A stretch of 37,316 nt of DNA from a virus (lineage: Duplodnaviria; Heunggongvirae; Uroviricota; Caudoviricetes). Positions 1-17,038 of this stretch are shown here, in pieces. A program made the translations under genes and the position numbers. Within the stretch, counting starts at the first letter, position 1; each line of letters begins with the position of its first letter. The notes below the pieces were generated by a model. That model had not been told where the DNA came from. It worked only from the letters and a program-made list of their open reading frames with translations, and did not search any database. The stretch lies in IMG/VR virus record IMGVR_UViG_2537561977_000024; one strand, given 5' to 3'.

Positions 1-258
1 ATGCAAACCGTTATTTTTGGTCGTTCGGGTTGCCCTTACTGTGTGCGTGCAAAAGATCTGGCTGAGAAATTGAGCAATGAACGCGATGATTTTCAGTATC
101 AGTATGTAGATATTCGTGCGGAAGGGATCACTAAAGAAGATCTACAACAAAAGGCAGGTAAACCCGTAGAAACCGTGCCGCAGATTTTTGTCGATCAGCA
201 ACATATCGGCGGCTATACCGATTTTGCTGCATGGGTGAAAGAAAATCTGGACGCCTGA
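1..258 (+). CDS. grxA: glutaredoxin 1
   Basis: 85-aa ORF with CPYC redox motif; matches E. coli GrxA as recalled; followed by a terminator. Confidence 0.93.
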   Translation: MQTVIFGRSGCPYCVRAKDLAEKLSNERDDFQYQYVDIRAEGITKEDLQQKAGKPVETVPQIFVDQQHIGGYTDFAAWVKENLDA

Positions 259-267
259 TCGTCTGAC

Positions 268-300
268 AAGCCCTCGCGTTGAGGGCTTTACTGATTTTTT
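268..300 (+). terminator. rho-independent terminator downstream of grxA
   Basis: GC stem aagccctc/gagggctt with 5-nt loop, then T-run at 295-300. Confidence 0.55.
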
Positions 301-665
301 CTGTGCTGTGGTTTAAACAAACTACTGATAAATAAGAAACACAGTGCCCCCAGCGCACACCAGAACACCGCGCTTAGTAACCATGCCAGCTCTTGCCAGA
401 ATGAGCGCGTCGGTGAAAAAAACAGCCGCATAATGAGCATTGAACAGGGTGCCGCCAGCATTGCGCCAAATAGAGGTTTCAGGACTTCTCTACGCTGTGA
501 AAAGAAACTGGCAACTGCTCCAGGAAGAATGAAAAACAGCAAGCCGATTTCAGGATGCCCGGCAGCCCGAAAAGCGCCTTTCATGTGCGTCGCCAGAAAA
601 AGGCACACCACAATGAAGAGGACAAAACAGCAGATTGCCCCCGCCCAACGTTGTTTATGTTTCAC
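288..665 (-). CDS. ybjM: inner membrane protein YbjM
   Basis: 125-aa hydrophobic ORF in the conserved position between grxA and ybjL. Confidence 0.8.
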   Translation of the reverse strand: MKHKQRWAGAICCFVLFIVVCLFLATHMKGAFRAAGHPEIGLLFFILPGAVASFFSQRREVLKPLFGAMLAAPCSMLIMRLFFSPTRSFWQELAWLLSAVFWCALGALCFLFISSLFKPQHRKNQ

Positions 666-934
666 TCGTTCCTCCTGACACTGCGTCTATCGAACACATT
701 TTTCGCCAGTGTGGCGTTCAGTAAGATAAAGCCGCTTCGCATTCCATGCTAATATAGGCCAACGCAATTCATATAGCCGTTGATACCTAATGTGATTACA
801 CTAGTAAAATATATTGTTACTTTACTATCGTTTAGGTGCGCTGAATGAATCTGCGCCCTGAATTCTGGTAAAAAACATTATCGTAAATTACCATTTCTTT
901 CAACAGCTTACTAGTAAACAAGAAGTTAGCCTCC

Positions 935-2620
935 GTGAATATAAACGTCGCCGAATTGTTAAATGGGAATTACATTCTGTTATTATTTGTGGTCCTCGCG
1001 CTTGGGCTATGTCTCGGAAAGTTACGACTTGGTTCGATCCAACTGGGTAATTCCATTGGCGTTTTAGTCGTATCGCTGTTATTAGGCCAACAACATTTCA
1101 GCATTAACACCGATGCGCTTAATCTTGGCTTTATGCTGTTTATTTTCTGCGTCGGGGTCGAAGCCGGACCGAACTTTTTTTCCATTTTTTTTCGCGATGG
1201 GAAAAATTACCTAATGTTAGCACTGGTGATGGTTGGCAGTGCGCTGGTGATCGCCTTAGGGTTAGGTAAGCTGTTTGGCTGGGATATTGGCCTGACGGCC
1301 GGTATGTTAGCAGGCTCTATGACGTCGACACCGGTTCTGGTCGGTGCTGGCGATACACTGCGTCATTCCGGCATGGAAAGCAGGCAGCTCTCACTGGCAC
1401 TGGATAATCTGAGCCTCGGGTATGCCTTAACCTATTTAATCGGTCTGGTGAGTTTGATTGTTGGTGCGCGTTACTTGCCGAAATTGCAGCATCAGGACTT
1501 ACAGACCAGCGCCCAGCAAATCGCCCGCGAACGTGGCCTGGACACTGATGCCAACCGTAAGGTTTATTTACCGGTGATCCGCGCCTATCGCGTCGGCCCG
1601 GAGCTGGTGGCCTGGACCGACGGCAAAAATCTGCGTGAACTGGGTATTTATCGACAAACCGGCTGCTACATTGAACGTATTCGACGTAACGGGATTCTGG
1701 CAAATCCAGACGGTGATGCCGTGCTACAAATGGGCGATGAAATAGCGTTGGTAGGCTATCCCGACGCCCATGCCCGACTCGATCCCAGCTTCCGTAACGG
1801 TAAAGAAGTTTTCGATCGTGACCTTCTCGACATGCGTATCGTCACTGAAGAAGTGGTCGTTAAAAACCATAACGCTGTAGGTAAACGTCTCGCACAACTG
1901 AAGTTGACCGATCACGGTTGCTTCCTTAACCGCGTCATTCGTAGCCAGATTGAGATGCCGATAGATGACAACGTCGTGCTTAACAAAGGTGACGTTTTAC
2001 AAGTCAGCGGTGATGCCCGTCGCGTAAAAACCATCGCCGATCGCATCGGCTTTATCTCGATTCACAGCCAGGTCACTGACCTGCTGGCATTTTGCGCCTT
2101 CTTTGTTATTGGGCTGATGATCGGGATGATCACCTTCCAGTTCAGCACATTCAGTTTCGGCATGGGGAACGCTGCCGGGTTGTTATTCGCCGGAATTATG
2201 CTGGGCTTTATGCGTGCTAACCACCCGACCTTCGGTTACATTCCGCAAGGTGCATTAAGCATGGTGAAAGAGTTCGGCTTGATGGTGTTTATGGCAGGCG
2301 TTGGTCTGAGCGCCGGTAGCGGTATTAATAACGGCCTGGGCGCGATTGGCGGTCAGATGTTGATTGCCGGATTAATTGTCAGTCTTGTGCCCGTGGTTAT
2401 CTGTTTCTTGTTCGGTGCTTATGTATTGCGAATGAACCGCGCACTGTTGTTCGGCGCAATGATGGGCGCACGCACCTGCGCGCCGGCAATGGAGATCATC
2501 AGTGATACAGCTCGCAGTAACATCCCTGCGCTGGGCTATGCGGGCACCTACGCAATCGCCAACGTCCTGCTGACGCTGGCAGGGACAATCATCGTCATGG
2601 TATGGCCAGGATTAGGATAA
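935..2620 (+). CDS. ybjL: putative AAE-family transporter YbjL
   Basis: 561-aa ORF with two membrane domains flanking central soluble (TrkA-C-like) region; matches E. coli YbjL in length and N-terminus. Confidence 0.88.
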
Positions 2621-2732
2621 AACTGAAGTTGCCCTGAAAATGAAATTTTTTTGCACAACCGCAGAACTTTTCCGCAGGGCATCAGTCTTAATTAGTGCCA
2701 CTGCTTTTCTTTGATGTCCCCATTTTGTGGAG

Positions 2733-2776
2733 CCCATCAACCCCGCCATTTCGGTTCAAGGTTGATGGGTTTTTTG
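2733..2776 (+). terminator. hairpin plus T-run downstream of ybjL, probably the chromosomal side of the prophage junction
   Basis: 10-bp perfect stem cccatcaacc/ggttgatggg followed by ttttttgtt. Confidence 0.5.
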
Positions 2777-2855
2777 TTGCCTGAAATTTAAGCTGTTTAA
2801 AATCATGATGTTAGAAACACTGTTTTTTAACGATGGCGACAAAATGGCGGCAGCG

Positions 2856-3074
2856 TCAAAGAGAGAGCGCCACCTGTCCTGATTTCATTGGATGCGGCTG
2901 AACCGGATTTGACTCTTTTGGCGTTGCAATCGAACGAACAAAAGTTTCATGGGTAACAAAAGTATGGCTGCAGTTAATGTTCTGGCACTGGTTGTAACGC
3001 TCTTTGGTCAATGAAGATACCTGAAAACTGCTGCGAGTATGGGCGGCACTTCCACACAGTGGGCAAATCATCAT
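2856..3074 (-). CDS. ogr: Ogr-family zinc-finger late transcription activator
   Basis: CPLC...HxR...CxNxxC pattern like P2 Ogr / 186 B; start set at internal Met by comparison with the ~72-aa Ogr. Confidence 0.85.
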   Translation of the reverse strand: MMICPLCGSAAHTRSSFQVSSLTKERYNQCQNINCSHTFVTHETFVRSIATPKESNPVQPHPMKSGQVALSL

Positions 3075-3164
3075 TTTTCGAGTTCTCCCCATTTTTGCTA
3101 AATTCACAATAATGATACCGCATTATTCCATTTTGCAAACTTAAAAGTTCTCCATTGCGAAGAA

Positions 3165-4747: not shown

Positions 4748-7700
4748 GCGTCGTATCCCCCCTGATCGCTGTAGTTACTCCTGGCTTTTGCCTTCAGCCT
4801 GCGTTCACGTTCATCAAGCTGGCGGGCCACCTCCCGCGCAATATCCTGCGCACTTTGTCCTGGCTGTGTCTGGATGATGATCTGCGTCGGTGCTTCAATC
4901 CGGTAAATGGGCGGCACAGTAGCTGCACGACTCACCATCGCTTCACCGCCTTTTGCGGGAAGCGCCAAAGGATGCAACGGTGGAAGCTCTGCTGGCGCGG
5001 CAGCAACACCCATCATTCCGGCGACAACGGCAGCCAGTGCAGCTGTATTTCTCCGGCTGGTCACGTTTGCCGGGCCGTTAACAATTTCCGGCCCGTTTTC
5101 ACCGACGATGCCAAACTGCCCGCGCGGGATATAGCCGCCGCTGTCATACATCCCCGCAAAGCCATATCCCCATGACGGAAAATCACCCGATGGCATCATC
5201 ACTTTACCGTCTGCATTCACCGTCGCAGGTTGCTGACGCGTCACGCTTTCCGGCAGTTTCGCCTTTGCAGCCTCTTTACTGACAATGCCGAGTTTCTCCA
5301 GCAACCAGGAAACGCCGGATTTCAGGGAGTCCAGCGGATGCATGACCATATTCAGCCCTTCTGCCAGTGCCTCCCCGAATCGTCGCCCCATTGCCGCTGC
5401 GCTCTGCAGTTCGGCAGAGGTCGACTTAACGGGCGTCAGCAGATCAGTAAACCAGCCCCACAGCGCCTGCACTTTGTCGCCAATCCACTGGAACACGGGC
5501 TTAAGCGGTTCGAACGCTGCACTGATGGGACCTGCCGCCGCTTTGAATCCTTCCACCACGCCACCGAGAAATGCGGTGATGGGTTGCCAGTATTTCCAGA
5601 CAACCAGCGCCACGCCCGCCAGTGCAGTAACCACAAGACCTATCGGACTGAGCAGAGCACCTAACAGACCAGATATGGCATACAGGGCAACGCGCAGCAT
5701 CGCCAGTGGACCAGATGCCAGTACTCGCAGCACCGTGCCTGCGGCGGCCAGTCCACCGCGCAGTACCGCCAGAGGATTCATAAACATCACAGCAACAGCA
5801 CGTAAACCGGATAATCCAGACCGCAAAAGTGCAACCGGCGCACCTGCTACAGTTTTCAGGACATTTTCCGTCAGTGATGCCGTGCGGCGCAAAGACGACA
5901 ACGGCGCAGTAAGTAAACCTGCGGCGTTGCCCGATGAAGCAAGCCCGCGTCGCAGCAGTGCCAGTGGCGCGCCAGCCAGCCAGGACAACGCGCTGCTGGT
6001 TCGAGTTACTGCTGCCGTAACGGAAGATAACGTTTTGATACCCAACACAGAGAATCCCAGACGGATCACTGCCAGCGGCCCCAGCACTGCAGCCAGCGCC
6101 ACCGCTAAGGTGCCGAGGCCCACGGTAACGGCAGCCACCACAGCGGCTACTTTCATCAGTGTGCCCGTCAGTTCCGGGTTAGCTTCCACCCAACGACGCG
6201 ACGCTCCCGTGACGCTTTTCACCATGTACAGAATATCCATCAGCGGCTGGCGCAGCGTTTCGCCCAGGCTGCTGAAGGTGTTCTGCGCTCCGGTTTTGAC
6301 CAGCAACCACTGCGCAGAAAGTGAGTCCTTGTTAATGTCGGATTCTTTCTGCATGGAGCCGAGCGCATCATTGCCCGCTGTCAGTTTTAACTGGCGCTGC
6401 AGTTCCGGCAGGTTGTTTGCCAGTTTCGCCGCGTCATCGCCAAACTCTTTACCAAACAACATGGTCATGGCAGACAGACGTTTATCCTGCGGCAGTGCGT
6501 TCACCTTCTCCAGTACGCGCTGGATAGTTCCCATCGCATCCTTCGTCATCTGCTTTTCAATCACTTCAGGGTTGAGTTTCAGCAGATTCATTCCTTCAAA
6601 GAAACTCTTGCTTTGCATGGTGGCAATAGACAATTCACGCACCATCGCGTTGGCTGCACTGGCTGCAACCTCCGGCGCAGCACCCAGTGTCAGGAAGGTG
6701 GAACCCAGCGCCGCCGCTTTACGATAATCCAGACGATCAGCCACACCGCCCAGGCGTTGCATGACATCAATGATGTCTGCCCCTTTCGACATGGCGTTAT
6801 CATCCAGATAGTTCAGCGCATCACCGAGCTGTTCAATATTGCGGGTAGGGATTTTGTAGAGCTGGGCGATTTTGCCCAGACTTTCTGACAGTTCATCCGC
6901 TGGCAGCTCAAAGGCTGTTGCCGCCTTTGCTGCCGTGCTGGCGAAGGCCAGCAGATCACGTTTCTGGTCTTCCCAGCTGTCGTCAGGGTTTGCGACGTTC
7001 ATGCGCGCACCACCTTCAACCAGTGCAGCGAAATCCACCGCACCGTTTTCCATCGGCAACTGTTCGCTGGCAGCCTTGATGGCATCCTGCATTTCATAAA
7101 AACGTGCAGTGCGGTTGCCATTATCGTCACGCAGACCATTGACCTGCTTTGCCACACCTTTCATGGCATCTTCCATGCTGGTATAGCTTTTTACTGCCGC
7201 CATCACTGGTGCGCCCATTGCCAGCCCTGCAGCCGTGGTGGTGGCTCCGGCACCTGCAATCCGATCCCTTACTTCAAGACGCCTGGCGTAAGCCCCTCGG
7301 GCGGCGTGCATTTTTCGCTGTTGCTCCCCGACACGTCGTAACCTCGCTTCCTGCTCAGAAAGCTGCCTGTTATAACGCATCGTTTCACGGGTAATGCGGG
7401 CCGTCGCACTGGCACCATCATTAGCTGAAATACCAGCACGATAAAGTTCTGCACGCACAAGCGCCGTCTGCTGCTGCAGCTTTTTCTGGCGTTCTTCCAG
7501 GCGCTGAACAGCCAGCCGTTGACGGCCCAGAGCAACAACCTGACGTTGCGAAGGCGGCCCCATCGCTCCCAGTTCCTGACTGAGCAAATTTGCACGCTGG
7601 CGGGCATAGCTCAGCCTGTCGCCTAATTTCTGATTTTCTGCCTGCAGCTTTCGGAAGCTGTCCAGACTGCTCCCGGCCTGATCAAGCTGCTTTATTGCAT

Positions 7701-7833
7701 CGCGGGATTTTTTGACAGCAGCAGCCAGTTCTCTTGAACTGGCCTGCGCAGATCGAAATGGGCGGGTGAGCTTGTCAACCGCATTAAGAATGACCTGCAG
7801 ACGCAGGTTATTGTCACTCATGGCTGGCCCCAC
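4744..7833 (-). CDS. T: tail tape measure protein
   Basis: 1029-aa Ala/Leu/Gly-rich ORF with coiled-coil N-region between E/E' and U. Confidence 0.9.
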   Translation of the reverse strand: MGPAMSDNNLRLQVILNAVDKLTRPFRSAQASSRELAAAVKKSRDAIKQLDQAGSSLDSFRKLQAENQKLGDRLSYARQRANLLSQELGAMGPPSQRQVVALGRQRLAVQRLEERQKKLQQQTALVRAELYRAGISANDGASATARITRETMRYNRQLSEQEARLRRVGEQQRKMHAARGAYARRLEVRDRIAGAGATTTAAGLAMGAPVMAAVKSYTSMEDAMKGVAKQVNGLRDDNGNRTARFYEMQDAIKAASEQLPMENGAVDFAALVEGGARMNVANPDDSWEDQKRDLLAFASTAAKAATAFELPADELSESLGKIAQLYKIPTRNIEQLGDALNYLDDNAMSKGADIIDVMQRLGGVADRLDYRKAAALGSTFLTLGAAPEVAASAANAMVRELSIATMQSKSFFEGMNLLKLNPEVIEKQMTKDAMGTIQRVLEKVNALPQDKRLSAMTMLFGKEFGDDAAKLANNLPELQRQLKLTAGNDALGSMQKESDINKDSLSAQWLLVKTGAQNTFSSLGETLRQPLMDILYMVKSVTGASRRWVEANPELTGTLMKVAAVVAAVTVGLGTLAVALAAVLGPLAVIRLGFSVLGIKTLSSVTAAVTRTSSALSWLAGAPLALLRRGLASSGNAAGLLTAPLSSLRRTASLTENVLKTVAGAPVALLRSGLSGLRAVAVMFMNPLAVLRGGLAAAGTVLRVLASGPLAMLRVALYAISGLLGALLSPIGLVVTALAGVALVVWKYWQPITAFLGGVVEGFKAAAGPISAAFEPLKPVFQWIGDKVQALWGWFTDLLTPVKSTSAELQSAAAMGRRFGEALAEGLNMVMHPLDSLKSGVSWLLEKLGIVSKEAAKAKLPESVTRQQPATVNADGKVMMPSGDFPSWGYGFAGMYDSGGYIPRGQFGIVGENGPEIVNGPANVTSRRNTAALAAVVAGMMGVAAAPAELPPLHPLALPAKGGEAMVSRAATVPPIYRIEAPTQIIIQTQPGQSAQDIAREVARQLDERERRLKAKARSNYSDQGGYDA

Positions 7834-8250
7834 TTCTCTGAATCGCTTTATACCGCCATTCCAGCACTTCGGTCAGCGGCATAACGTCAGTAACGGATGG
7901 CGGCCAGTGAAAGATGGTGGCGATATCAGCCACCAGATCGTCAACCGTCAGGCTGTCGGTAAACCGGCAAGCACCGACTTCTTCAACAAAAAAGTGACAA
8001 CCTCAACCGACATGGCAGTGAGATCTGCCGGGTCCATCTCTGCAATTTCCTGTGCAGTCAGTGCCGGACTGGAGATGCGGGGGATCACGGTCATCATCGC
8101 GTTCACATCCATATCCATAATGGCCTGCAGGCGTGTGCCGCGCAGCGCACCGGACTGCGGTTTACGCAGCACAATTTCGGTGATTTCTGTTTTACCGCGC
8201 TTGATGGGGGTATCCAGTTGAATAGTCTTTTCAGTCTGCTTATCGCTCAT
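7826..8250 (-). CDS. tail assembly chaperone E+E' fusion product made by -1 frameshift
   Basis: Shifting -1 at TTTTTTG continues the ORF to a TGA overlapping the T start codon, as in P2 E/E'. Confidence 0.6.
7948..8250 (-). CDS. E: tail assembly chaperone E
   Basis: 100-aa ORF upstream of T; ends just after slippery site. Confidence 0.8.
   Translation of the reverse strand: MSDKQTEKTIQLDTPIKRGKTEITEIVLRKPQSGALRGTRLQAIMDMDVNAMMTVIPRISSPALTAQEIAEMDPADLTAMSVEVVTFLLKKSVLAGLPTA
7987..7993 (-). promoter_or_regulatory. programmed -1 ribosomal frameshift slippery heptamer T6G
   Basis: minus-strand TTTTTTG inside codons ACT TTT TTG of gene E. Confidence 0.6.
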
Positions 8251-8304
8251 TTTGCTGTCCTGTAAATTGGGTTCTGGCGCGGTATCCCGCGCCGTTCAGA
8301 TACA

Positions 8305-8820
8305 TCAGAGGCCGAGGGCGTTACGGTGCGCTTCCATCAGGTCCACACCGTCCACAATTTCCACCATGTTGATAAGGTCCACTTCATAGAGCACCTCACC
8401 ATTTATAGTCAGCTTCGCGTAGCTGTTGGTACTGGTCACTTTGGTGGTGTTGCTTTCGCCCGTCTTCCACTCGCCGGAATCCACTTCTTTGTGACGTCCA
8501 CGCACCACAAGCTCCACGGCCTGCACTTCCCCGGTATCGTCACGCTGGATAGAGCCGGTAAAGCGCAACTGGATACCATCCACCGTGGCTTTGCCCATCT
8601 GCTTAAACAGCAGCAGTTCAGTACCACCAATGGAAAATTCCGTATCCAGTGCGCCGTCATCCAGCCCCAGATCCACATCCACTGCACCCGGCATTCCGCC
8701 GCCGCGATACTTCTCATATTTGCGGGTAAATTTCGGCAGCGTCAGCGACTCAACGATCCCCTGCCAGTTGTTCCCGTCATTAAACAGGTTCAGGTGTTTT
8801 AATTTGCGTGGTAAAGCCAT
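8305..8820 (-). CDS. FII: tail tube protein FII
   Basis: 171-aa ORF, same length class and position as P2 FII. Confidence 0.88.
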   Translation of the reverse strand: MALPRKLKHLNLFNDGNNWQGIVESLTLPKFTRKYEKYRGGGMPGAVDVDLGLDDGALDTEFSIGGTELLLFKQMGKATVDGIQLRFTGSIQRDDTGEVQAVELVVRGRHKEVDSGEWKTGESNTTKVTSTNSYAKLTINGEVLYEVDLINMVEIVDGVDLMEAHRNALGL

Positions 8821-8829
8821 GTTGTCCCC

Positions 8830-10002
8830 TTACGCGCTGACCTGGCTGGAGAAATTCACCAGGTACTGATCGGTGATGCGCTGACGCAGCATCAGGTTTT
8901 CAAGTGGCGGCACTGGCGTGTAGTCGTAGTCGATGGTGAGTTTTCCGGCTTTCAGCGTGTCTTTGTCGTTCACCGACTCATCCAGCCAGCAATCACCACC
9001 AATGAGATAGCCCTGACTGACCAGGCTGCGCATTTTGGCGCGGATACCCTCGATAATGTCGCGGGCCAGCGACGGATTCAGCGGTTTATCCACCGCCCAC
9101 ATGTGCGCTTCTGCCATCGTGTCCGTCAGCACCTGCGCCGTGCGGGTGTAGTTTTCGAAGGCAAAGAGCGGGTCATCACTCAGGCAGCGGGAACCCCAGA
9201 AGCGAAAACCGTCTTTGCGGATAAGGGTGGTGACGTCGTTCTGGTTCAGCAGTCCCGCATCGGTTGCCGGGTCCTGCAGATCCCAGAACACATCAGCAGA
9301 AATTCCGGTGACACCGTTAACGCCCACGTTGGACAGGCTTTTGTGCCATCCGGTCTGCTCGTCAATTTTGGCGCGCAGACCAAGCGCACGGGCGGTGGCA
9401 TAAGCCGTTGCTTCGGCATTCAGCACCGTGTCCCAGCCAGTAAAGTCGGGCCAGATCAGCATTCCTTCACGCTGACTGAAGTTTTCACGGTAAGTGATTG
9501 CTTCCTGCACCGTCTTGCAACCATACGCTGACAGGTAAGCAAATCCACGCAGGCTTTGCGCCACGCTCAGCAACTCAGTAGCTACCGCCTTCGTGTCGTG
9601 ACCTGGCACGCCGAGAATGCGCGGTTTAACGCCGAGCTGTGACTGGGCAGATAACAGGGCTTTCATGCCTGTTTTTTTACCTTCAGCGGTCACTGCTCCG
9701 ATGATATTGGTCGTGGTTTCTTCTTCCGTTTCACCCTGCGGCACACGCACAACAACGGTCACGGGTTTTGCCTGGTCAGCGATGGCATCCAGCGAACGAG
9801 CCAGCGTGCCTGACTCACCCGCTTTACCGCTGGCAGTCAGCACATCCGTGATCAGCACGGGTTTATTAAGAGGAAACATTTTTGCATCGGCATCATCGCC
9901 CGTGCAGACCATACCCACGATGGCGGTGCTCACCGTGGTAATGGATCGGGTGCCTTCGTTGACTTCAACAACGCGCACCCCGTGGTGGTAATCCTGAGCC
10001 AT
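8830..10002 (-). CDS. FI: contractile tail sheath protein FI
   Basis: 390-aa ORF, position and length like P2 FI. Confidence 0.9.
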
Positions 10003-10078
10003 AGTGGCGAACCTCCTGATTGGATTAGGCTTCGCCCTATGTTGAAGTGATTGTGCCTGACAAACAGCTAAGCGCAGT

Positions 10079-10096
10079 TGTACCGTTATTCACACA
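10079..10096. promoter_or_regulatory. TGT-N12-ACA late-promoter activator site (PF-like)
   Basis: TGTACCGTTATTCACACA ~85 bp upstream of FI start; same dyad motif recurs upstream of V and in O/P region. Confidence 0.5.
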
Positions 10097-10144
10097 AAAT
10101 GACGGTATTTGTCTGCTTTCAGGGATAATCAAAATAAAGCTGAT

Positions 10145-10711
10145 TCAGGGAGATTTATTGTTCTTATTTGCCGGAAATTTTCGATAAATGGTAGAAACGC
10201 CTACATCAAAAATCAGTGCAATACGCTGTCTTGATTCTCCGGCCTCGAGTAAACGCCCAATCTGTGCCCACTGTTCGCTGGTCAACTTAGGACGGCGTCC
10301 ACCTACTCTGCCTTTAGCACGAGCTGCAGCCAGCCCCGCCCTGGTACGTTCAACTATCAGTTCGCGTTCCATTTCAGCCAGGGCACCCATGACATGAAAA
10401 AAGAAACGGCCCATTGGGGTACTGGTATCAATACTGTCAGTCAGGCTTCGGAAATTCACGCCACGCTGGCGCAGCTCTTCTATCAGCGTAACAAGATGCC
10501 GCATACTGCGCCCCAGTCTGTCCAGCTTCCAGACAACCAGCGTGTCTCCTGCCGATAGTGTCCTGAGCAGCTTTTTCAGCCCCGGTCTGTCGGACTTGGT
10601 GCCACTGATTTTATCCTCAAAAATCCGCTCACATCCCGCACAGTTCAGTGCATTGCGTTGCAAATCGGTGTTCTGGTCATTTGTTGACACGCGTACATAG
10701 CCAATAAGCAT
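10145..10711 (-). CDS. Gin/Pin/Cin-family serine DNA invertase
   Basis: N-terminus MLIGYVRVSTNDQNTDLQRNAL... with catalytic Ser and C-terminal HTH; near-identical in pattern to Gin/Pin as recalled. Confidence 0.9.
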   Translation of the reverse strand: MLIGYVRVSTNDQNTDLQRNALNCAGCERIFEDKISGTKSDRPGLKKLLRTLSAGDTLVVWKLDRLGRSMRHLVTLIEELRQRGVNFRSLTDSIDTSTPMGRFFFHVMGALAEMERELIVERTRAGLAAARAKGRVGGRRPKLTSEQWAQIGRLLEAGESRQRIALIFDVGVSTIYRKFPANKNNKSP

Positions 10712-10738
10712 GATCATCCCCCTGAATAAAAACCGGAG

Positions 10739-11236
10739 ATGATGCCAGTTAGCCGTTATCTCTGCATTTTCATAAACGTTCGTTTGGGAGCAGGTGCTCC
10801 AGCTATCGGAATTCCGTTCTTCTGGCCGTCGTCGGCAATGCCGAATACTGTCATGACAGAATGGGCCGATATGGTGTTTTTGAAGTTCAATGGGGCGACG
10901 TTCTCAGCAGCGACATATCCGATACTGGCCCTGGTGCTCCCAGGCCTGACGTTGCCTGACGCTCGCGGCGAATTTCCACGTATCTGGGATGATGGGCGTG
11001 GCGTGGATAACGGGCGTGCATTGCTAAGTTCCCAGATCGCAACCAGCATTGGTCGTTACGTTGGGACCGATGGTAATACAGCTTTTATTGGTATCAATAA
11101 TACTGATACTACGGGTTCCGGATACGCCAGTTGGTCGAGAGTATCAGCAACAAGTACAGGGGTGTTTGGGCAAACAGAATACCAGGGGGTTCGTCCTCGT
11201 AATATCGCATTCAACTTTCTTGTAAGGGCTAAATAA
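10739..11236 (+). CDS. silent alternative tail-fibre C-terminal cassette (Sv'-like)
   Basis: ORF with tail-collar-like motif RGEFPRIWDDGRGVDNGR; opposite strand to H; begins at the left recombination site in frame with H. Confidence 0.65.
   Translation: MMPVSRYLCIFINVRLGAGAPAIGIPFFWPSSAMPNTVMTEWADMVFLKFNGATFSAATYPILALVLPGLTLPDARGEFPRIWDDGRGVDNGRALLSSQIATSIGRYVGTDGNTAFIGINNTDTTGSGYASWSRVSATSTGVFGQTEYQGVRPRNIAFNFLVRAK
10768..10791. repeat. gix-like invertase recombination site (left)
   Basis: Minus-strand TGCTCCCAAACGAACGTTTATGAA; inverted copy of site at 12592-12615; resembles gix/hix dyad. Confidence 0.6.
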
Positions 11237-12604
11237 TGAAACCAGTACTTGACGACAATGGACTGGCTACCTATGCCGGAAATATTCGCTGTTATTACTA
11301 CGATGAATTAACAGGTGAATACACTGGTTGGTCAGATGAATTTATTAATGTAGGTGTGAGCATGCCCGGAAATTCTACAGATATTGACCCAGGAGAAGAT
11401 ATATCGGGCAAAGTGTCAGTATTTAGCGGTGACGGATGGAATTGGCAGGAAGACCATCGAGGCAATACTGTCTATTCAACAGAAGAAGGAGCCGCCAGCG
11501 TAGTTGACTACATCGGTGAGATTAAAGAAGGATTTACCGCAATTGCGCCGGGAACAAAATACGATAAATGGGACGGGGAAAAGTGGGTAACGGATAGTGA
11601 GGCTCAGCACATAGCCGATGTTGCAACCGCCGAAGCGGAAAAACAGGCCAGAATTGACCAGGCCAATAACTACATTAACAGCAGACAATGGCCCGGCAAA
11701 GCCGCTTTAGGCCGCCTGAGTGACGCAGAAAAAGAGCAATATAATCTGTGGTTGGATTATCTCGATGCGCTGGAAGCCGTGGACACCTCCAGTGCACCAG
11801 ATATTAACTGGCCTACTCAGCCTGATAATCGGGAGCAGGCTGAGTAAATGCGGCGCCATCGTATAAATACCCCGACTCAACGTCATCAGGACAATTAACC
11901 CAAACCAACGAGGGGTGGAAACGCCCCTCCGGATCTACATCTACGGTTTCTTCAACGCGAAAGTTTTCTTTGCCTTCAATTTTTTAATTCTTGCCCATGT
12001 CATTTAATCACCACTCAATAATCACAATACCATTTTTACCAGAGCCGGATTTATTACTACTGTTAGCAGCAATCCCACCACCACCGCCCCCATAACCAGT
12101 CGCATCCAGACCCACCCCTGTAGATCCTCGGCCTCCGGGGCCGCCACCGTTGCCGCCGCAATTTGCCGAGTTGGCTGAACCGTCATCCCCCCAACCCAAC
12201 CCCTGATTAACATCTCCGCCAACACCGGCTCCCGACGAACCACCGGATGTTGATGTGCCGCCATACCCATACTGACCACCAGTCGCGGAGAGATAAGAAC
12301 CAAAAGAAGATGACCCACCGGATGCGCCATTACCTGTAGTTACGCCAGCACCAGCAGAGCCAACGGTTACCGTAACGCTTGAAACGTCTGTGAGATCGAG
12401 AAGCAATTTCGAATATCCGCCACCGCCGCCACCGCCCCCGCGCTTTGTTGTATCGGTAGTCGACCCGCCAGACGCTCCACCACCAATTACTGTCACCTGG
12501 CATTTTCGCCCTTGTTGGAGTGCCTCAGGAACGTTCCAGTTAGATACTCCAGGGGTGTTGAAAACAACTATGTTTTGCAGGCCAAAGGCCGATGCTCCTA
12601 AACC
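10780..12604. other. invertible tail-fibre DNA segment (G-segment-like), ~1.8 kb
   Basis: Bounded by inverted gix-like sites; adjacent invertase; two alternative fibre tips in opposite orientations. Confidence 0.6.
11236..11847 (+). CDS. tail fibre assembly chaperone (U'/G-like) for the silent cassette
   Basis: 203-aa ORF immediately after the Sv'-like cassette; position and length typical. Confidence 0.75.
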   Translation: MKPVLDDNGLATYAGNIRCYYYDELTGEYTGWSDEFINVGVSMPGNSTDIDPGEDISGKVSVFSGDGWNWQEDHRGNTVYSTEEGAASVVDYIGEIKEGFTAIAPGTKYDKWDGEKWVTDSEAQHIADVATAEAEKQARIDQANNYINSRQWPGKAALGRLSDAEKEQYNLWLDYLDALEAVDTSSAPDINWPTQPDNREQAE

Positions 12605-13654
12605 AAGGTATGCGAGAAGACCAGCTACATCCTTTCCACTCAAATTGGTAAGCGTATTGTCCAGCGGTTGTTTACCTGCCAGCGCATTAAGCATTGTCGT
12701 GGCAAAGTTCGGATCATTCCCCAGTGCCGCCGCCAGTTCGTTCAGTGTATCCAGTGCAGCAGGTGCAGAACCCACCATTCCTGCAATCGCCGATTTCACA
12801 AAAGCCGTAGTGGCAATCTGTGTATTGTTGACCGACTGCGCCGCCGTGGGGGCTGTTGGCGTTCCGGTGAGTGCCGGACTCGACAACGGTGCTTTTAGTG
12901 CCAGCGCATTGTTAATGGTGGTACTGAAATTCGGATCATTGTTAATGGCTGCGGCTATTTCTTTCAGCGTGTCCAGCGTGGCTGGCGCACCATTAATAAG
13001 GGCCGTCAGTGCCGCCTGTACAAACGCAGTGGTCGCAACCTGCGTGGTATTATTCCCCGCCGCTGGCGTTGGCGCTTTGGGGGTTCCGGTAAATGTCGGG
13101 CTGGCTTTTGGCGCGTACTGTGAATGCGGGTCCGGTGCGGCAAGATGTTTTGCCATCTGATCATCCGCGTACACCTTCAGCTCCAGTGCCTTGTCATCCA
13201 CATACTTGCGGGTTGCCAGCACTACAGCAGGGTCGATTTTCAGGGTGATATTGTCCGTGCTGCTGGTAATCAGCACCATGCGCACGGTCTGAGTGCGCCC
13301 GCTACCTTCAGCCAGTTGCGGCTTATAGCTTTCCGGGCAGTTGCCTACGGCAATCAATGCCCCGGACTCATCAAACAGACCCACTTCACGTATCCACCAA
13401 CCACCCTCATTTTCAGGGATCACCTGTTCAGCAATAATCTGGCTGCTGTTCTGCGGGTCGATATAAAGCATATTCAGCGCAGCCCGGCGTTTCTCATTTA
13501 CCAGTGCCGTCTGCTTTGCGTCCGGCGTCGGCAATGCTCCGCCGCCATCGCCCACCGCCATATGGGTAATTTTTAGCGGCACACCGAGCGCGGCGGCGCT
13601 GGCAAGTTTCGCCGCGCCAATATCCGTCAGCAGGGTATAAAATTTTGTGCTCAT
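12008..13654 (-). CDS. H: tail fibre protein H with glycine-rich C-terminal tip
   Basis: N-terminus MSTKFYTLLTDIGAAKLA... like P2 gpH; C-terminal ~195 aa after the recombination site is Gly/Ser-rich. Confidence 0.85.
   Translation of the reverse strand: MSTKFYTLLTDIGAAKLASAAALGVPLKITHMAVGDGGGALPTPDAKQTALVNEKRRAALNMLYIDPQNSSQIIAEQVIPENEGGWWIREVGLFDESGALIAVGNCPESYKPQLAEGSGRTQTVRMVLITSSTDNITLKIDPAVVLATRKYVDDKALELKVYADDQMAKHLAAPDPHSQYAPKASPTFTGTPKAPTPAAGNNTTQVATTAFVQAALTALINGAPATLDTLKEIAAAINNDPNFSTTINNALALKAPLSSPALTGTPTAPTAAQSVNNTQIATTAFVKSAIAGMVGSAPAALDTLNELAAALGNDPNFATTMLNALAGKQPLDNTLTNLSGKDVAGLLAYLGLGASAFGLQNIVVFNTPGVSNWNVPEALQQGRKCQVTVIGGGASGGSTTDTTKRGGGGGGGGYSKLLLDLTDVSSVTVTVGSAGAGVTTGNGASGGSSSFGSYLSATGGQYGYGGTSTSGGSSGAGVGGDVNQGLGWGDDGSANSANCGGNGGGPGGRGSTGVGLDATGYGGGGGGIAANSSNKSGSGKNGIVIIEW
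12592..12615. repeat. gix-like invertase recombination site (right), inside H coding sequence
   Basis: TGCTCCTAAACCAAGGTATGCGAG; inverted relative to 10768-10791; encodes LGLGA in H matching RLGAGA at the other site. Confidence 0.6.
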
Positions 13655-14256
13655 GGATTCACTCTCATTGTGTCAATAACATGGACCGCCCCGCCTTCAT
13701 GCGCGGTGCCGCCGGAAATAATTGTTTCGTTGATATACGGATAGATCGTGATTTCTTCGCCAAGATAACTGGCGGCTCCCACCCAATGCGGACCGCTGGT
13801 CTGCAGATTGATGGACATGCCGATCATGTGACGGCTACATGGTTTGGCATCGCTTATCAGTCGCTCAAGTTCCAGATAGGTATCTTCAGTGATGCCCTGG
13901 TCCTGCACACCAATGTCCAGACGAAACGTGCCCGGTGTTTCTCCGGTCTGCCACCACTCAATAATGCGGATCAGGAAGCCGAACGGCTCCACCACCCGCC
14001 GTACGGCACTGGTGGTTCCTTTGTGCTGATGAATATAAAAAGCATCCTTCACTACCTGGCGTTTGACGCTTTCTGTCCAGCCCTCGTCCCAGCGATCCAC
14101 AGAGAACGCCCAGGCGAGATAAGGCAGGAAACTGACCGGACAGGTTGCCGGATTCCACAAGTCACGCAGTGACACCTGCAGATCAGAAATCCCGCTACAG
14201 GTTTGCGCCAGTCGGCGCTCCAGTGGCGTTGAACCCGGTGGCAGCAGACTATTCAT
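13651..14256 (-). CDS. I: baseplate assembly protein I
   Basis: N-terminus and WNP...LPYLAWAFSVDRWDE motif like P2 gpI. Confidence 0.85.
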   Translation of the reverse strand: MNSLLPPGSTPLERRLAQTCSGISDLQVSLRDLWNPATCPVSFLPYLAWAFSVDRWDEGWTESVKRQVVKDAFYIHQHKGTTSAVRRVVEPFGFLIRIIEWWQTGETPGTFRLDIGVQDQGITEDTYLELERLISDAKPCSRHMIGMSINLQTSGPHWVGAASYLGEEITIYPYINETIISGGTAHEGGAVHVIDTMRVNP

Positions 14257-15157
14257 CCGTTCCCCCGTTGGTCACGCTCCACTGAGTACATGATGCCGCC
14301 TGCGTTTTGTTCAGGACCACATCAGCCAGCGGTGAAGCCAGCTCCACACGTTGAACACCCTCAACATGCAGCGCGGCAAAAATAGCACTACGGCGAATAT
14401 CCCGACCGAGCCGCGTCTGACTGGCGATGTACCTCTGCAGGCTGACTTTTGCCGCTGCCATTACCGGCTCTGCTTCCGGTCCCGGATAAAGAAAAATGGT
14501 AGCTTCCACACGGTACGGGATGATTTCTGCGCTGCGAACCGTCAGACGGTCAGCCACCGGGCGGACGTTCTCACTGTTCAGGGCTTTCTCCACCACATCC
14601 AGCAAGTCTTTTTCTGCTGTTCCGTCGCCTTCACGACTCAGGACAGTCAGTACCACCTCTGCAGGTGCCGGACTGGTTGCACTGGCATCCGCCACCCGAC
14701 CGTCGGCGCTTCGGGCATGAAATTCATAAGCGGCAGTTGGCCCCGCAACAGAAAGCCCTTCAAAGGCTGCAGGCACACGCAGGCGTAACGCTTCATCGCT
14801 TTCCATCACAGCCGCAACGGGTGGCACAGCGTCATTATCAGCAGGCGTCACCGTCAGGCGTTTCACGTTGTAGTTGGCAGCGAGCTGGTCAAGATCGCCG
14901 CCCATCGCGTAAGCCACCATCACAGCCTGCGCGGCTTCGTTAATGCGCTGGCGCAGAAGCAACTCACGGTAAGCGTTCTCCTGCAGCAATTTGGTGACGG
15001 GTTCAGATTCCAGTTCCAGCGTGCGGATCACGGCTTCCTGCTCATCTTTCGGATGAAGCACAACAAATTCGGCCTTGCGTTCGGCAAGCAGCGTCTCAAA
15101 GTCCGGCACATCGACAATCTGCGGCGCAGGCAACTGCGAAAGGTCAATCACTGCCAT
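14249..15157 (-). CDS. J: baseplate protein J
   Basis: Begins MAVIDLSQLPAP like P2 gpJ (ORF track start 15196 trimmed to this Met). Confidence 0.85.
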   Translation of the reverse strand: MAVIDLSQLPAPQIVDVPDFETLLAERKAEFVVLHPKDEQEAVIRTLELESEPVTKLLQENAYRELLLRQRINEAAQAVMVAYAMGGDLDQLAANYNVKRLTVTPADNDAVPPVAAVMESDEALRLRVPAAFEGLSVAGPTAAYEFHARSADGRVADASATSPAPAEVVLTVLSREGDGTAEKDLLDVVEKALNSENVRPVADRLTVRSAEIIPYRVEATIFLYPGPEAEPVMAAAKVSLQRYIASQTRLGRDIRRSAIFAALHVEGVQRVELASPLADVVLNKTQAASCTQWSVTNGGTDE

Positions 15158-15503
15158 TCTCTGCTCCTGTTGATACGGAAAGGGAAACAGGCACACCGTT
15201 ATTACGCCGCCCGGTCAGCCCCACCACCATTGAACCGTCAAAATTGCTTTTAATGGTGATGGAATCCAGCGTCAGCCGTGGCTCCCAGCGACTCAGCGCC
15301 ACATACACTGCCGACATGACCTGCAGGCGTAATGCCGGATTTTGTGGCTGGTCTATCAGTGTCGACAGCAGGGAACCATATTCACGACGGGCAATGCGGC
15401 AACCCTGCGGTGTCAGTAGAATGTCCCGCACCGACTGACGCAGATGGTCAATATCAGTAATGGCTTTACCGCTGGTATTGTTCATCCCGATATAAAGCGT
15501 CAT
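15144..15503 (-). CDS. W: baseplate wedge protein W
   Basis: 119-aa ORF, motif REYGSLL..IDQPQ like P2 gpW. Confidence 0.85.
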   Translation of the reverse strand: MTLYIGMNNTSGKAITDIDHLRQSVRDILLTPQGCRIARREYGSLLSTLIDQPQNPALRLQVMSAVYVALSRWEPRLTLDSITIKSNFDGSMVVGLTGRRNNGVPVSLSVSTGAENGSD

Positions 15504-16078
15504 ACCGGGCCTCCGGTTGTATCGCCGCCTTTCAGGACGCCAGTATGCTGATGCGCATCAACCACGATCCCGTTAGAACTCATCGCTCCGCCGCCCTGGG
15601 TAACGCCACCATTGATCACCACTTCGCTGTTAATGCGCGTGCGGTCAGCCTCCAGTACAAACTCACTGGTTTTCATGGTGATGTTGTCAGCGGCCTCAAT
15701 GACCATTGATTTGATGCCCCTGACATACCAGCGCCCGGTGGCGGGTTCGTATTCAAACCAGCCACCGTCAGGATGTTCTGTCACGCAGGCGTCCGCCGAC
15801 GTCGACGGTGGTGCGAACTGATTCGAATAGACAGCGGGCAGCGCAAAGGCGGTTTCCAGATTGCCGCCCAGACTCAGCAGCACCACCTGCTCACCTTCCG
15901 ATGGTCGCCACCATGTGCGGGCATTCCCGGCACGCAGCGTCAGCCAGCTGATCCAGTTGGTTTCAAGCTCGCCCGTTTTCACCCGGCAAAGCCAGTTTTC
16001 CCTGTCCACTTCGGTGACTACCCCAGTGCGGATCAGGTTGGTGATAAGGCGCATGATTTCGGTTAATTGTGCGTTCAT
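15500..16078 (-). CDS. V: baseplate spike protein V
   Basis: 192-aa ORF with P2 gpV-like N-terminus and TWWxPSxGEQV motif. Confidence 0.85.
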   Translation of the reverse strand: MNAQLTEIMRLITNLIRTGVVTEVDRENWLCRVKTGELETNWISWLTLRAGNARTWWRPSEGEQVVLLSLGGNLETAFALPAVYSNQFAPPSTSADACVTEHPDGGWFEYEPATGRWYVRGIKSMVIEAADNITMKTSEFVLEADRTRINSEVVINGGVTQGGGAMSSNGIVVDAHQHTGVLKGGDTTGGPV

Positions 16079-16124
16079 AGGGAAAGGTTGCCATCAGGGG
16101 AAGAAAGGCGGCAGTGCTGCAACT

Positions 16125-16142
16125 TGTATCAGTGCTGATACA
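16125..16142. promoter_or_regulatory. TGT-N12-ACA late-promoter activator site (PV-like)
   Basis: Perfect dyad TGTATCAGTGCTGATACA in the S-V intergenic gap. Confidence 0.5.
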
Positions 16143-16146
16143 AAGA

Positions 16147-16593
16147 TCACCCCGCCAGCCATTGCAGAATCATGTCGCTGGTCATTGCCTCAACATCATC
16201 ATTTACACCCAGCAGGCGGCGCTCTGCGTAACGGACCTCCGGTCCTTTGCGACTGACGCGATCACGCAGGCCGTAATGGTGAACACGGGCAATACGCTGC
16301 ACCTTGCCTTCAAACTGTACGCTGGCAGAGTCGGCGCTGGCGGCAGTTTTCAGGTATTTTGTGGTGCGCAGCTTTGCAAACATCTGACGTTTGATGCGGC
16401 CTTTTTTGCTGCGTGCTGTTACCCTGCGCGGTTCATAACTGCTGCCATCTGGATTGCGCTGCATCCTGATATTCTGCTGCTGTGTCCGGCGCAGTTCCTG
16501 CGCCAGCTGGCGCATCATGCGGCTTCTCGTGGCTGGTTCCAGATTCGCCAGCAAGGCACTCAGCCAGTCGTCCACCTTCTGCAGTTCAGCCAC
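16147..16593 (-). CDS. S: tail completion protein S
   Basis: 148-aa ORF; synteny and length like P2 S. Confidence 0.8.
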   Translation of the reverse strand: MAELQKVDDWLSALLANLEPATRSRMMRQLAQELRRTQQQNIRMQRNPDGSSYEPRRVTARSKKGRIKRQMFAKLRTTKYLKTAASADSASVQFEGKVQRIARVHHYGLRDRVSRKGPEVRYAERRLLGVNDDVEAMTSDMILQWLAG

Positions 16594-17038
16594 GTTTCAC
16601 CGTCCACATTTCTTCAGGTTCATCGGGTTCTGCTACAGCTTCAACGCTCGACACACTGCCGTCAGTACTGACCAGCACACGTTCCGTCAGTTGCAGGTTA
16701 AGGCTGATATCACAGACATCGTTGCGCAAAATATCCACCTCAAAGGTGAATAGCTTTTCCCGTAACGCCGGGTTATTGATGGCATCGGGCTGGTTATCCC
16801 GAAGCCACAGTAAAACCGGGGCCATCAGCAGATTCTGGTCGCCGCTGAAATCCTCTATCACCACGTTCAGGGTATAGCGGTACTCCCATGACATGGAGCT
16901 GGCCCCCGTGGCAACCAGCGAACCGTTATCCACAAACAGATGCAGTTTGTCCGGGTTATTGCGGACATAAGGCACCGCTTTATTGAGGGCGTGGCGCAGG
17001 GATTGTGGTTTATTCACTGTTTCGCTCCTGACACGCAA
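16586..17038 (-). CDS. R: tail completion protein R
   Basis: 150-aa ORF; synteny and length like P2 R. Confidence 0.8.
   Translation of the reverse strand: MRVRSETVNKPQSLRHALNKAVPYVRNNPDKLHLFVDNGSLVATGASSMSWEYRYTLNVVIEDFSGDQNLLMAPVLLWLRDNQPDAINNPALREKLFTFEVDILRNDVCDISLNLQLTERVLVSTDGSVSSVEAVAEPDEPEEMWTVKRG

Follow-up and report, generated by a model that had tools for sequence, protein, structure and literature searches.

Introduction

Whether both of the tail-fibre tips exchanged by an invertible switch in a P2-like prophage of Escherichia coli have an assembly chaperone of their own, or whether one of them folds without such help, is the question raised by a caudovirus sequence of 37,316 nucleotides (nt) (IMG/VR record IMGVR_UViG_2537561977_000024; the whole stretch is referred to below as the window). 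A first-pass annotation, made from the sequence alone, had described a Gin/Pin-type invertase gene next to a segment of about 1.8 kb bounded by inverted gix-like sites, and had proposed that inversion exchanges a Gly/Ser-rich low-complexity tip of fibre gene H, with no dedicated chaperone, for a conventional tail-collar tip with a 203-amino-acid (aa) chaperone. Both orientations of the segment were found in public assemblies, the Gly-rich tip was predicted to be a folded domain of the type seen in the fibre of cyanophage Pam3, and the apparent lack of a chaperone was traced to a 1-nt deletion in a 63-codon gene that directly follows the tip in related loci.

The invertible segment and its inversion in nature

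In-silico inversion of positions 10781-12604 (1,824 bp) kept gene H in frame as a 501-aa protein, H', with the gene for the 203-aa chaperone directly after it. The 501-aa H' sequence had an exact match in a public protein collection, on 7 contigs, with one source naming it "putative variable tail fiber protein", and the 548-aa H of the window had an exact match on 3 contigs in the same collection; residues 1-350 are identical between the two isoforms. Contigs carrying the isomers were retrieved via the chaperone gene, and in two of them (L074, GCA_012769395.1, and L076) window positions 10776-12606 were inverted between colinear flanks at 99.9% identity, while a third (L077) had the same orientation as the window. 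The isomer alignments overlapped at the breakpoints, at 10776-10792 and 12593-12606, spanning both TT cores, and in L074 and L076 the silent tip formed the C-terminus of the 501-aa H', with the Caudo_TAP chaperone gene directly after it. The inverted isomer implied by the first-pass annotation therefore exists, and the comparison of assemblies demonstrates, at the level of sequence, an invertase-driven switch that exchanges two unlike tail-fibre tips with unequal accessory genes. Inversion of fibre segments in P2-like prophages has been proven experimentally in enteropathogenic E. coli (EPEC) E2348/69 (PMC4272514). In one P2-like prophage of EPEC several inversions are possible; a third crossover site, which would permit this here, was sought in 9900-13800 at ≤1 mismatch and none was found.

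The two crossover sites, L and R, are inverted, 26 bp long, identical at 19 of 26 positions, and have a TT core in both, with the layout of Mu gix (12 nt, 2-nt core, 12 nt; centre AAACS-TT-SGTTT). Mu gix, taken from the Mu genome, reads TTATCCAAAACC-TC-GGTTTACAGGAA and has an inverted partner. The left Mu copy falls where the fibre gene codes for NLGL in the S protein, and the AYLGLGA encoded by site R is found at the equivalent place. The reading frame is open across the junction in both orientations (...AYL/GLGASAFG... as present, ...AYL/RLGAGAP... when flipped), as had been claimed. The sites were missed by a generic inverted-repeat finder, being only 73% alike.

The invertase and the silent cassette

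The invertase open reading frame (ORF) matched Pfam Resolvase (E 2e-53) and HTH_7 (E 6e-16), the PHROG "DNA invertase" (E 2e-101), and the Mu Gin structures 3UJ3/4M6F (E 1e-92, residues 3-185 aligned to 1-183), as a close full-length homologue, against just E 2e-34 for gamma-delta resolvase, and its translation contains the catalytic-serine motif YVRVSTNDQ. The domains, the full-length similarity, the inverted 26-bp sites with identical cores, and the occurrence of both orientations place it in the Gin/Hin/Cin/Pin family, where it had been put initially, and the enzyme is presumably active in the host strain. Homologues are 188 aa long and the Gin alignment starts at residue 3, so that the ORF as listed opens two codons earlier than these homologues and Gin, and translation probably begins at 10711, on the second ATG.

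On the silent side, the tip ORF matched a PHROG of tail fiber / tail collar fiber proteins (E 1e-41), and its Pfam Collar match was weak (E 1.3e-3, below the cut-off). The description of a silent tail-fibre tip with its chaperone holds. The 203-aa protein matched Pfam Caudo_TAP (PF02413, E 4e-34, 118 bits against a 22.1-bit cut-off) and the PHROG for tail fiber assembly (E 3e-73), and by these profile matches is classed as a true Caudo_TAP tail-fibre assembly protein.

The expressed tip

The tip expressed in the window orientation comprises 198 aa with 30.8% Gly and 12.6% Ser, and matched Pfam Gly_rich_2 (PF21722; 41.9 bits against a 24.3-bit cut-off, residues 367-548). Structure prediction, proposed at the outset for both tips, was obtained for this one using AlphaFold2 with an alignment of 115 homologues, producing a model with a predicted local distance difference test score (pLDDT) of 93.5, a predicted template modelling score (pTM) of 0.89, and the Pam3 fibre fold, in which a tumour necrosis factor (TNF)-like beta-sandwich runs into a stacked glycine-rich lattice. 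The sequence profile of the tip also matched 7ypx_A (E 1.8e-8), and the modelled tip is assigned to the well-folded, Pam3-type TNF-like/glycine-rich domains. The possibility of a disordered low-complexity stretch was rejected: the Gly/Ser-rich composition noted in the first-pass annotation is real, and by Pfam match and structure model it belongs to a folded, known domain. In Pam3, the TNF-like domain leads into a glycine-rich lattice whose variable distal loops have been proposed to bind the receptor (PMC9608196), and a Pam3-like fibre of a Klebsiella phage recognises lipopolysaccharide (PMC12671077). The two tips of the switch would presumably bind different receptors.

Close homologues of the tip (82-97% identity) were always fused at ...LGLGASAFGLQ... 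to N-terminal shafts, of which at least four unrelated types were found: the P2-like H described here, that of a P2-like phage at mutS, that of a Mu-like phage (gp45-48 baseplate), and that of a myovirus with Phage_Wedge1/Pam3_gp18 baseplate genes.

A frameshifted 63-codon gene downstream of the tip

The H stop (12008) and the end of the Caudo_TAP chaperone gene (11847) are separated by 160 bp, with a 20-codon ORF at 12003-11941, as the first-pass annotation had recorded. This ORF is, from alignment with related loci, the stump of a conserved 63-codon gene frameshifted by a 1-nt deletion, after which 56 codons follow in another frame. The 63-codon gene begins 4 nt past the H stop and overlaps the 3' end of the convergent Caudo_TAP gene by 35 nt, and its intact product reads MTWARIKKIEGKENFRVEETVDVDPEGRFHPSLVWVNCPDDVESGYLYDGAAFTQPAPDYQAE. 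Behind all four shaft types, a 63-codon ORF was found 4 nt after the tip stop, running into the 3' end of the convergent Caudo_TAP gene.

The deletion lies in a run at 11980-11985 that reads T6 on the plus strand (A6 on the coding strand) and A7 in relatives (L003, L006, L007, L074, L076, L077, L078), with A6 found just in the window and in an identical contig of E. coli LT-68 (ADUP01000041.1, locus L075; 100% identical to window 6236-16847, ~10.6 kb), the assembly from which the window probably derives. Compared with L077, the missing base of the A-run was the sole difference over 6,334 nt (0 mismatches, 1 gap), and comparison with L074 gave 5 mismatches and no other indel over 10.6 kb. Because the 63-codon gene is frameshifted in this copy and intact in the seven related loci, the statement that the expressed tip has no dedicated chaperone is regarded as an artefact of the 1-nt deletion. 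A terminator-like hairpin (GAGGGG...CCCCTC), the only one between the convergent genes, lies at 11910-11929 on the minus strand and falls within the most conserved codons of the 63-codon gene (PEGRFHPS).

Family and position of the 63-residue protein

The 63-aa protein had no match to any Pfam or NCBIfam family, its only match in PHROGs was a non-significant one to a family of unknown function (E 0.22), and a homologue search with the single sequence returned 6 matches only, so that finding the family took a profile made from the ORFs that lie behind Gly-rich tips. A hidden Markov model (HMM) was built from seven homologues and run on six-frame translations of all fetched loci, and all matches were on the fibre strand, immediately downstream of a Gly-rich tip. 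For a count of positions, 64 loci recovered through the tip alone were used, 62 of which had at least 250 nt of downstream sequence. A homologous ORF started 0-92 nt after the tip stop on the same strand in 37 of these 62 independent loci, 3 further loci had matches farther downstream on the same strand, and none had a match on the other strand. The hosts of these loci include Enterobacteriaceae, Pseudomonas, Rhizobium, Acetobacteraceae and Pectinatus, with others on uncultured viral contigs.

An 82-member profile of the family matched the "tail fiber chaperone" chain of 7YPX (E 1.8e-13). Like the gene for this chaperone, Pam3 gp25, the small gene lies directly downstream of its client fibre gene; the C-terminal helical domain of gp25 is absent. 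Since the protein ends at residue 63 and its structure model contains strands only, it is best filed as an N-domain-only relative of the gp25-type chaperones and not as a full member. In gp25, residues 64-162 form trimerising helices, and the N-terminal beta-sandwich binds the fibre tip (PMC9608196); the E. coli protein would therefore correspond to the gripping domain alone, and by analogy may act as a chaperone of the tip.

An exhaustive profile search returned 2,963 cluster representatives at E ≤ 0.001 and 847 at E ≤ 1e-10, i.e. a family of ~3,000 clusters at 50% identity; the matches listed were 55-195 aa long, with the domain N-terminal. Short proteins of 53-70 aa that consist of this N-domain only are seen repeatedly (45-90% identity) across several enterobacterial lineages and also in a Pseudomonas phage, and the 63-aa protein itself was found on 86 contigs of draft and metagenome data. 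Longer homologues have a C-terminal domain of chaperone type, Phage_tail_APC or DUF4376, and across loci L011, L012, L014, L027, L039, L051 and L068 the N-domain has at least two different C-terminal partners (these two) or none, which suggests domain shuffling within this class of chaperones.

Cassette boundaries

A backbone relative with other cassettes (L001) was 99.7-99.8% identical to the window on the left as far as 10790 and on the right from 12595 onward, with no shared sequence in the interval, and for Gly-tip modules on unrelated P2-like and Mu-like backbones the homology to the window ended at 12609-12617. Window 11652-12617, which takes in the Gly-rich tip, the 63-codon gene and ~65 codons from the 3' end of the convergent chaperone gene, was 89-97% identical to L003, L006 and L007. 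The baseplates of these three loci are unrelated (P2-like at mutS, Mu-like, and Phage_Wedge1 type), and the shared homology stops exactly at the gix-like site. Since homology ends there, the crossover site appears to double as the splice point for horizontal exchange of cassettes.

Proposed mechanism and alternative explanations

The locus is interpreted, with high confidence, as a host-range switch of the Gin/Cin/Pin type in a P2-like E. coli prophage, in which a Gly-rich tip with a 63-codon helper gene alternates with a conventional tip and its Caudo_TAP chaperone. The invertase would recombine the inverted gix-like sites at their TT cores, flipping the 1,824-bp segment and exchanging the last third of H and, with it, the gene of the matching assembly factor, with expression presumably driven from the P2 late operon. 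In the window orientation, H residues 1-350 would carry the 198-aa Pam3-type tip, followed 4 nt past the stop by the 63-codon gene, whose product, as the counterpart of the N-terminal beta-sandwich of gp25, would bind the nascent tip as that domain does. In the flipped orientation, the same 350 residues would carry the 151-aa conventional tip, followed by the 203-aa chaperone. In this particular copy the helper gene is frameshifted, so that either the assembly contains a homopolymer error or the displayed tip would be unable to assemble.

Several observations weigh against this interpretation. The flipped and unflipped isomers come from different samples and not from one population or culture. 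The 12-nt site centre alone was not rarer than chance (2 observed, 1.39 expected in the window); since it was not significant, the sites were judged functionally, and their validity is drawn from position, reading frame, relatives, and natural isomers. Gin-type invertases require a recombinational enhancer bound by Fis, which as a rule sits in the 5' portion of the invertase gene, and Fis sites are too degenerate to be read from a coding region such as this one. The helper gene is broken in the window, so that the tip may either fail to function in this copy or do without the gene. Lastly, the chaperone role is drawn from homology to one solved complex, and with the trimerising domain of gp25 absent the protein could act in another way, for example as a bound accessory.

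The first-pass annotation had proposed that the Gly/Ser-rich tip, as a low-complexity domain with no dedicated chaperone, folds alone or via host factors, and the mere 20-codon ORF after H in the window, as well as the lack of a curated family for the 63-aa protein, are in line with this. We consider it highly improbable, given that the tip is a Gly_rich_2 domain modelled at high pLDDT in the Pam3 fibre fold, that the 63-codon gene is intact (A7) in every other copy examined, and that a gene for this conserved homologue of the part of the Pam3 chaperone that binds the fibre normally follows such tips, a synteny with Gly-rich tips that extends across phyla. The 63-aa protein could instead remain on the tip as a structural accessory or adaptor, or be the remnant of a longer chaperone cut by the convergent gene, since it is without the helical domain that trimerises gp25, some Tfa proteins have been reported to persist in mature virions (PMC9608196), and the last 35 nt of its gene lie within the convergent chaperone gene. 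This is judged unlikely: the recurrence of 53-70-aa forms argues for selection on the short form and not for recent truncation, and what has been kept is precisely the domain through which gp25 touches the fibre in the Pam3 complex. Returning to the chaperone interpretation, we tentatively propose, as a possibility rather than a probability, that no free-standing tail-fibre chaperones are smaller than the 55-66-aa proteins after enterobacterial Gly-rich tips, in which one beta-sandwich would suffice to fold a TNF-like/polyglycine tip, with none of the trimerising helices present in every characterised Tfa-type chaperone, and that tip and mini-chaperone form a plug-in cassette, cut at the gix site, that moves among P2-like, Mu-like and other myovirus backbones.

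For the frameshift itself, there is about an even chance that it is a homopolymer error of sequencing or assembly and that in the actual prophage the mini-chaperone is intact and the Gly-tip orientation fully functional. The missing base is the one difference from L077, and A6 is restricted to the window and the identical LT-68 contig, i.e. to one assembly, which we take to be of the pyrosequencing era and prone to homopolymer errors (the literature on the sequencing method gave nothing useful); on the other side, the absence of any other indel relative to L074 indicates that the assembly is not generally error-ridden here, and A7 tracts slip in vivo as well. A real mutation, leaving a lysogen that displays a tip unable to assemble and is either a decaying prophage or dependent on flipping, is a serious possibility that falls somewhat short of an even chance: the given sequence does read A6, and in-frame starts could rescue at most ~30 C-terminal residues, but the compared prophage region is near-identical to intact relatives, and 5 mismatches in 10.6 kb argue against long decay. 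The short A-run is put down to an error of assembly or, alternatively, to slippage that happened very recently. Programmed slippage at the A6 run was also considered and was given low weight because the protein family shows no conservation of the A-tract (homologues have ...IEKFEDEE... or are without this segment). More speculatively, the A7 tract near the 5' end of the gene could provide a second, slipped-strand on/off layer on top of inversion.

Gene map and genomic setting

Coordinates of the features are collected in Table 1. Gene H (12008-13654, minus strand) encodes 548 aa, with a P2-type N-terminal domain (Pfam Phage_tail_fib, E 4e-65, in the constant part) and Gly_rich_2 at the C-terminus. 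Around the switch lies a P2 late tail operon, read right to left, with the baseplate genes V/W/J/I, fibre gene H, and genes for sheath, tube and tape measure. The left flank of the window (1-3100) is plain E. coli chromosome with ybjL, ybjM and grxA, after which a P2-type ogr gene stands at the prophage junction. A scan of 10000-13800 for promoters and terminators gave promoters not above shuffled expectation and, between the convergent genes, the one hairpin described above.

Table 1. Features of the invertible tail-fibre locus, in window coordinates.
Feature	Position	Strand	Details
Gin-family serine DNA invertase	10145-10717	-	190 aa as listed; Pfam, PHROG, Mu Gin structures
gix-like crossover site L	10767-10792		TTTTCATAAACG TT CGTTTGGGAGCA; core TT 10779-10780
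Invertible segment between cores	10781-12604		1,824 bp; in-silico flip and natural inverted isomers
Silent alternative tip cassette	10781-11236	+	151 aa past junction; ORF as listed 10739-11236, starts upstream of site
Silent 203-aa tail-fibre assembly chaperone for alternative tip	11236-11847	+	Caudo_TAP
Putative mini-chaperone gene, 63 codons if intact, disrupted here	11813-12003	-	A6 for A7 at 11980-11985
Expressed variable tip of H, residues 351-548	12008-12604	-	Predicted TNF-like and glycine-rich (polyglycine) receptor-binding domain
gix-like crossover site R, inside H	12593-12618		Reverse complement TTCTCGCATACC TT GGTTTAGGAGCA; core 12605-12606
P2-type tail-fibre gene H, constant region (residues 1-350)	12605-13654	-	Phage_tail_fib

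Distribution and significance

Megablast of the whole invertible segment against complete RefSeq E. coli genomes gave 3 weak partial matches, and a blastn search with distant settings using 11850-12600 against 5,426 complete E. coli genomes returned nothing. In the 5,426 complete genomes from RefSeq both cassettes (10795-12590) are near-absent, the invertase and H constant region on either side having matches in ~1,900, and the cassette pair is rare. A tblastn search with the tip against 50,697 phage records also returned nothing, a result that may have been blunted by the low-complexity filter. Other Mu-like prophages carry the same unequal pairing, with the Gly-rich cassette and small ORF silent, and the architecture is therefore recurrent and not a one-off. 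One Mu-like prophage (L082, GCA_039605535.1, 3365-4820) has a silent Gly-rich cassette with a 66-aa ORF and no resolvase-family gene called adjacent to it, where the sole ORF has 128 aa and no match in Pfam, and may represent an orphaned or trans-acting switch.

Since invertible fibre switches are textbook knowledge, the switch itself adds little. What is corrected is a misreading, in that a glycine-rich "low-complexity" tip is a defined receptor-binding fold that appears to have its own helper gene. The helper family, with ~3,000 clusters and no curated model, marks the partner gene of Gly_rich_2 tips, and a model for it would improve phage annotation. A compact tip with a 63-aa helper and a natural splice point would be attractive for retargeting phages or tailocins. 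The locus also serves as a warning that small genes after fibre genes are easily lost through homopolymer errors or overlap with convergent genes.

Relation to known systems

The switch itself is of a known type, whereas the variant with a putative single-domain chaperone is undescribed: no description of a Pam3-type tip as an invertible cassette with such a chaperone was found in the searchable literature. As in the Mu G segment with Gin (and in P1 Cin and e14 Pin), a small serine invertase adjoins the segment, two inverted 26-bp sites share an AAACC-NN-GGTTT centre, one of them coinciding with an (N/Y)LGL motif of the fibre gene, and a flip swaps the C-terminus of the fibre plus its assembly gene. 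Unlike in Mu, the segment spans 1.8 kb instead of ~3 kb and the backbone is P2-like and not Mu-like, and whereas the S/U and S'/U' pairs of Mu are alike in kind, the two cassettes here are structurally unrelated and unequal, a 203-aa Caudo_TAP protein standing against a 63-aa single-domain partner. The Caudo_TAP proteins of the Mu TfaU and lambda type are likewise encoded directly after the fibre gene and are modular, with a tip-specific N-terminal domain. In comparison with Pam3 gp24/gp25 (PDB 7YPX; PMC9608196), the small protein has 63 aa instead of 162 and a beta-sandwich only, with no helical trimerisation domain, and unlike the fixed, minimal fibre of Pam3, the tip here is joined to the long shaft of a P2-type H, as one of two invertible alternatives. 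As carriers of polyglycine receptor-binding domains, the S16/T2-type gp38 adhesin, mycobacteriophage Bxb1 gp33/gp29, and the glycine-rich domain of ALK/LTK are related systems.

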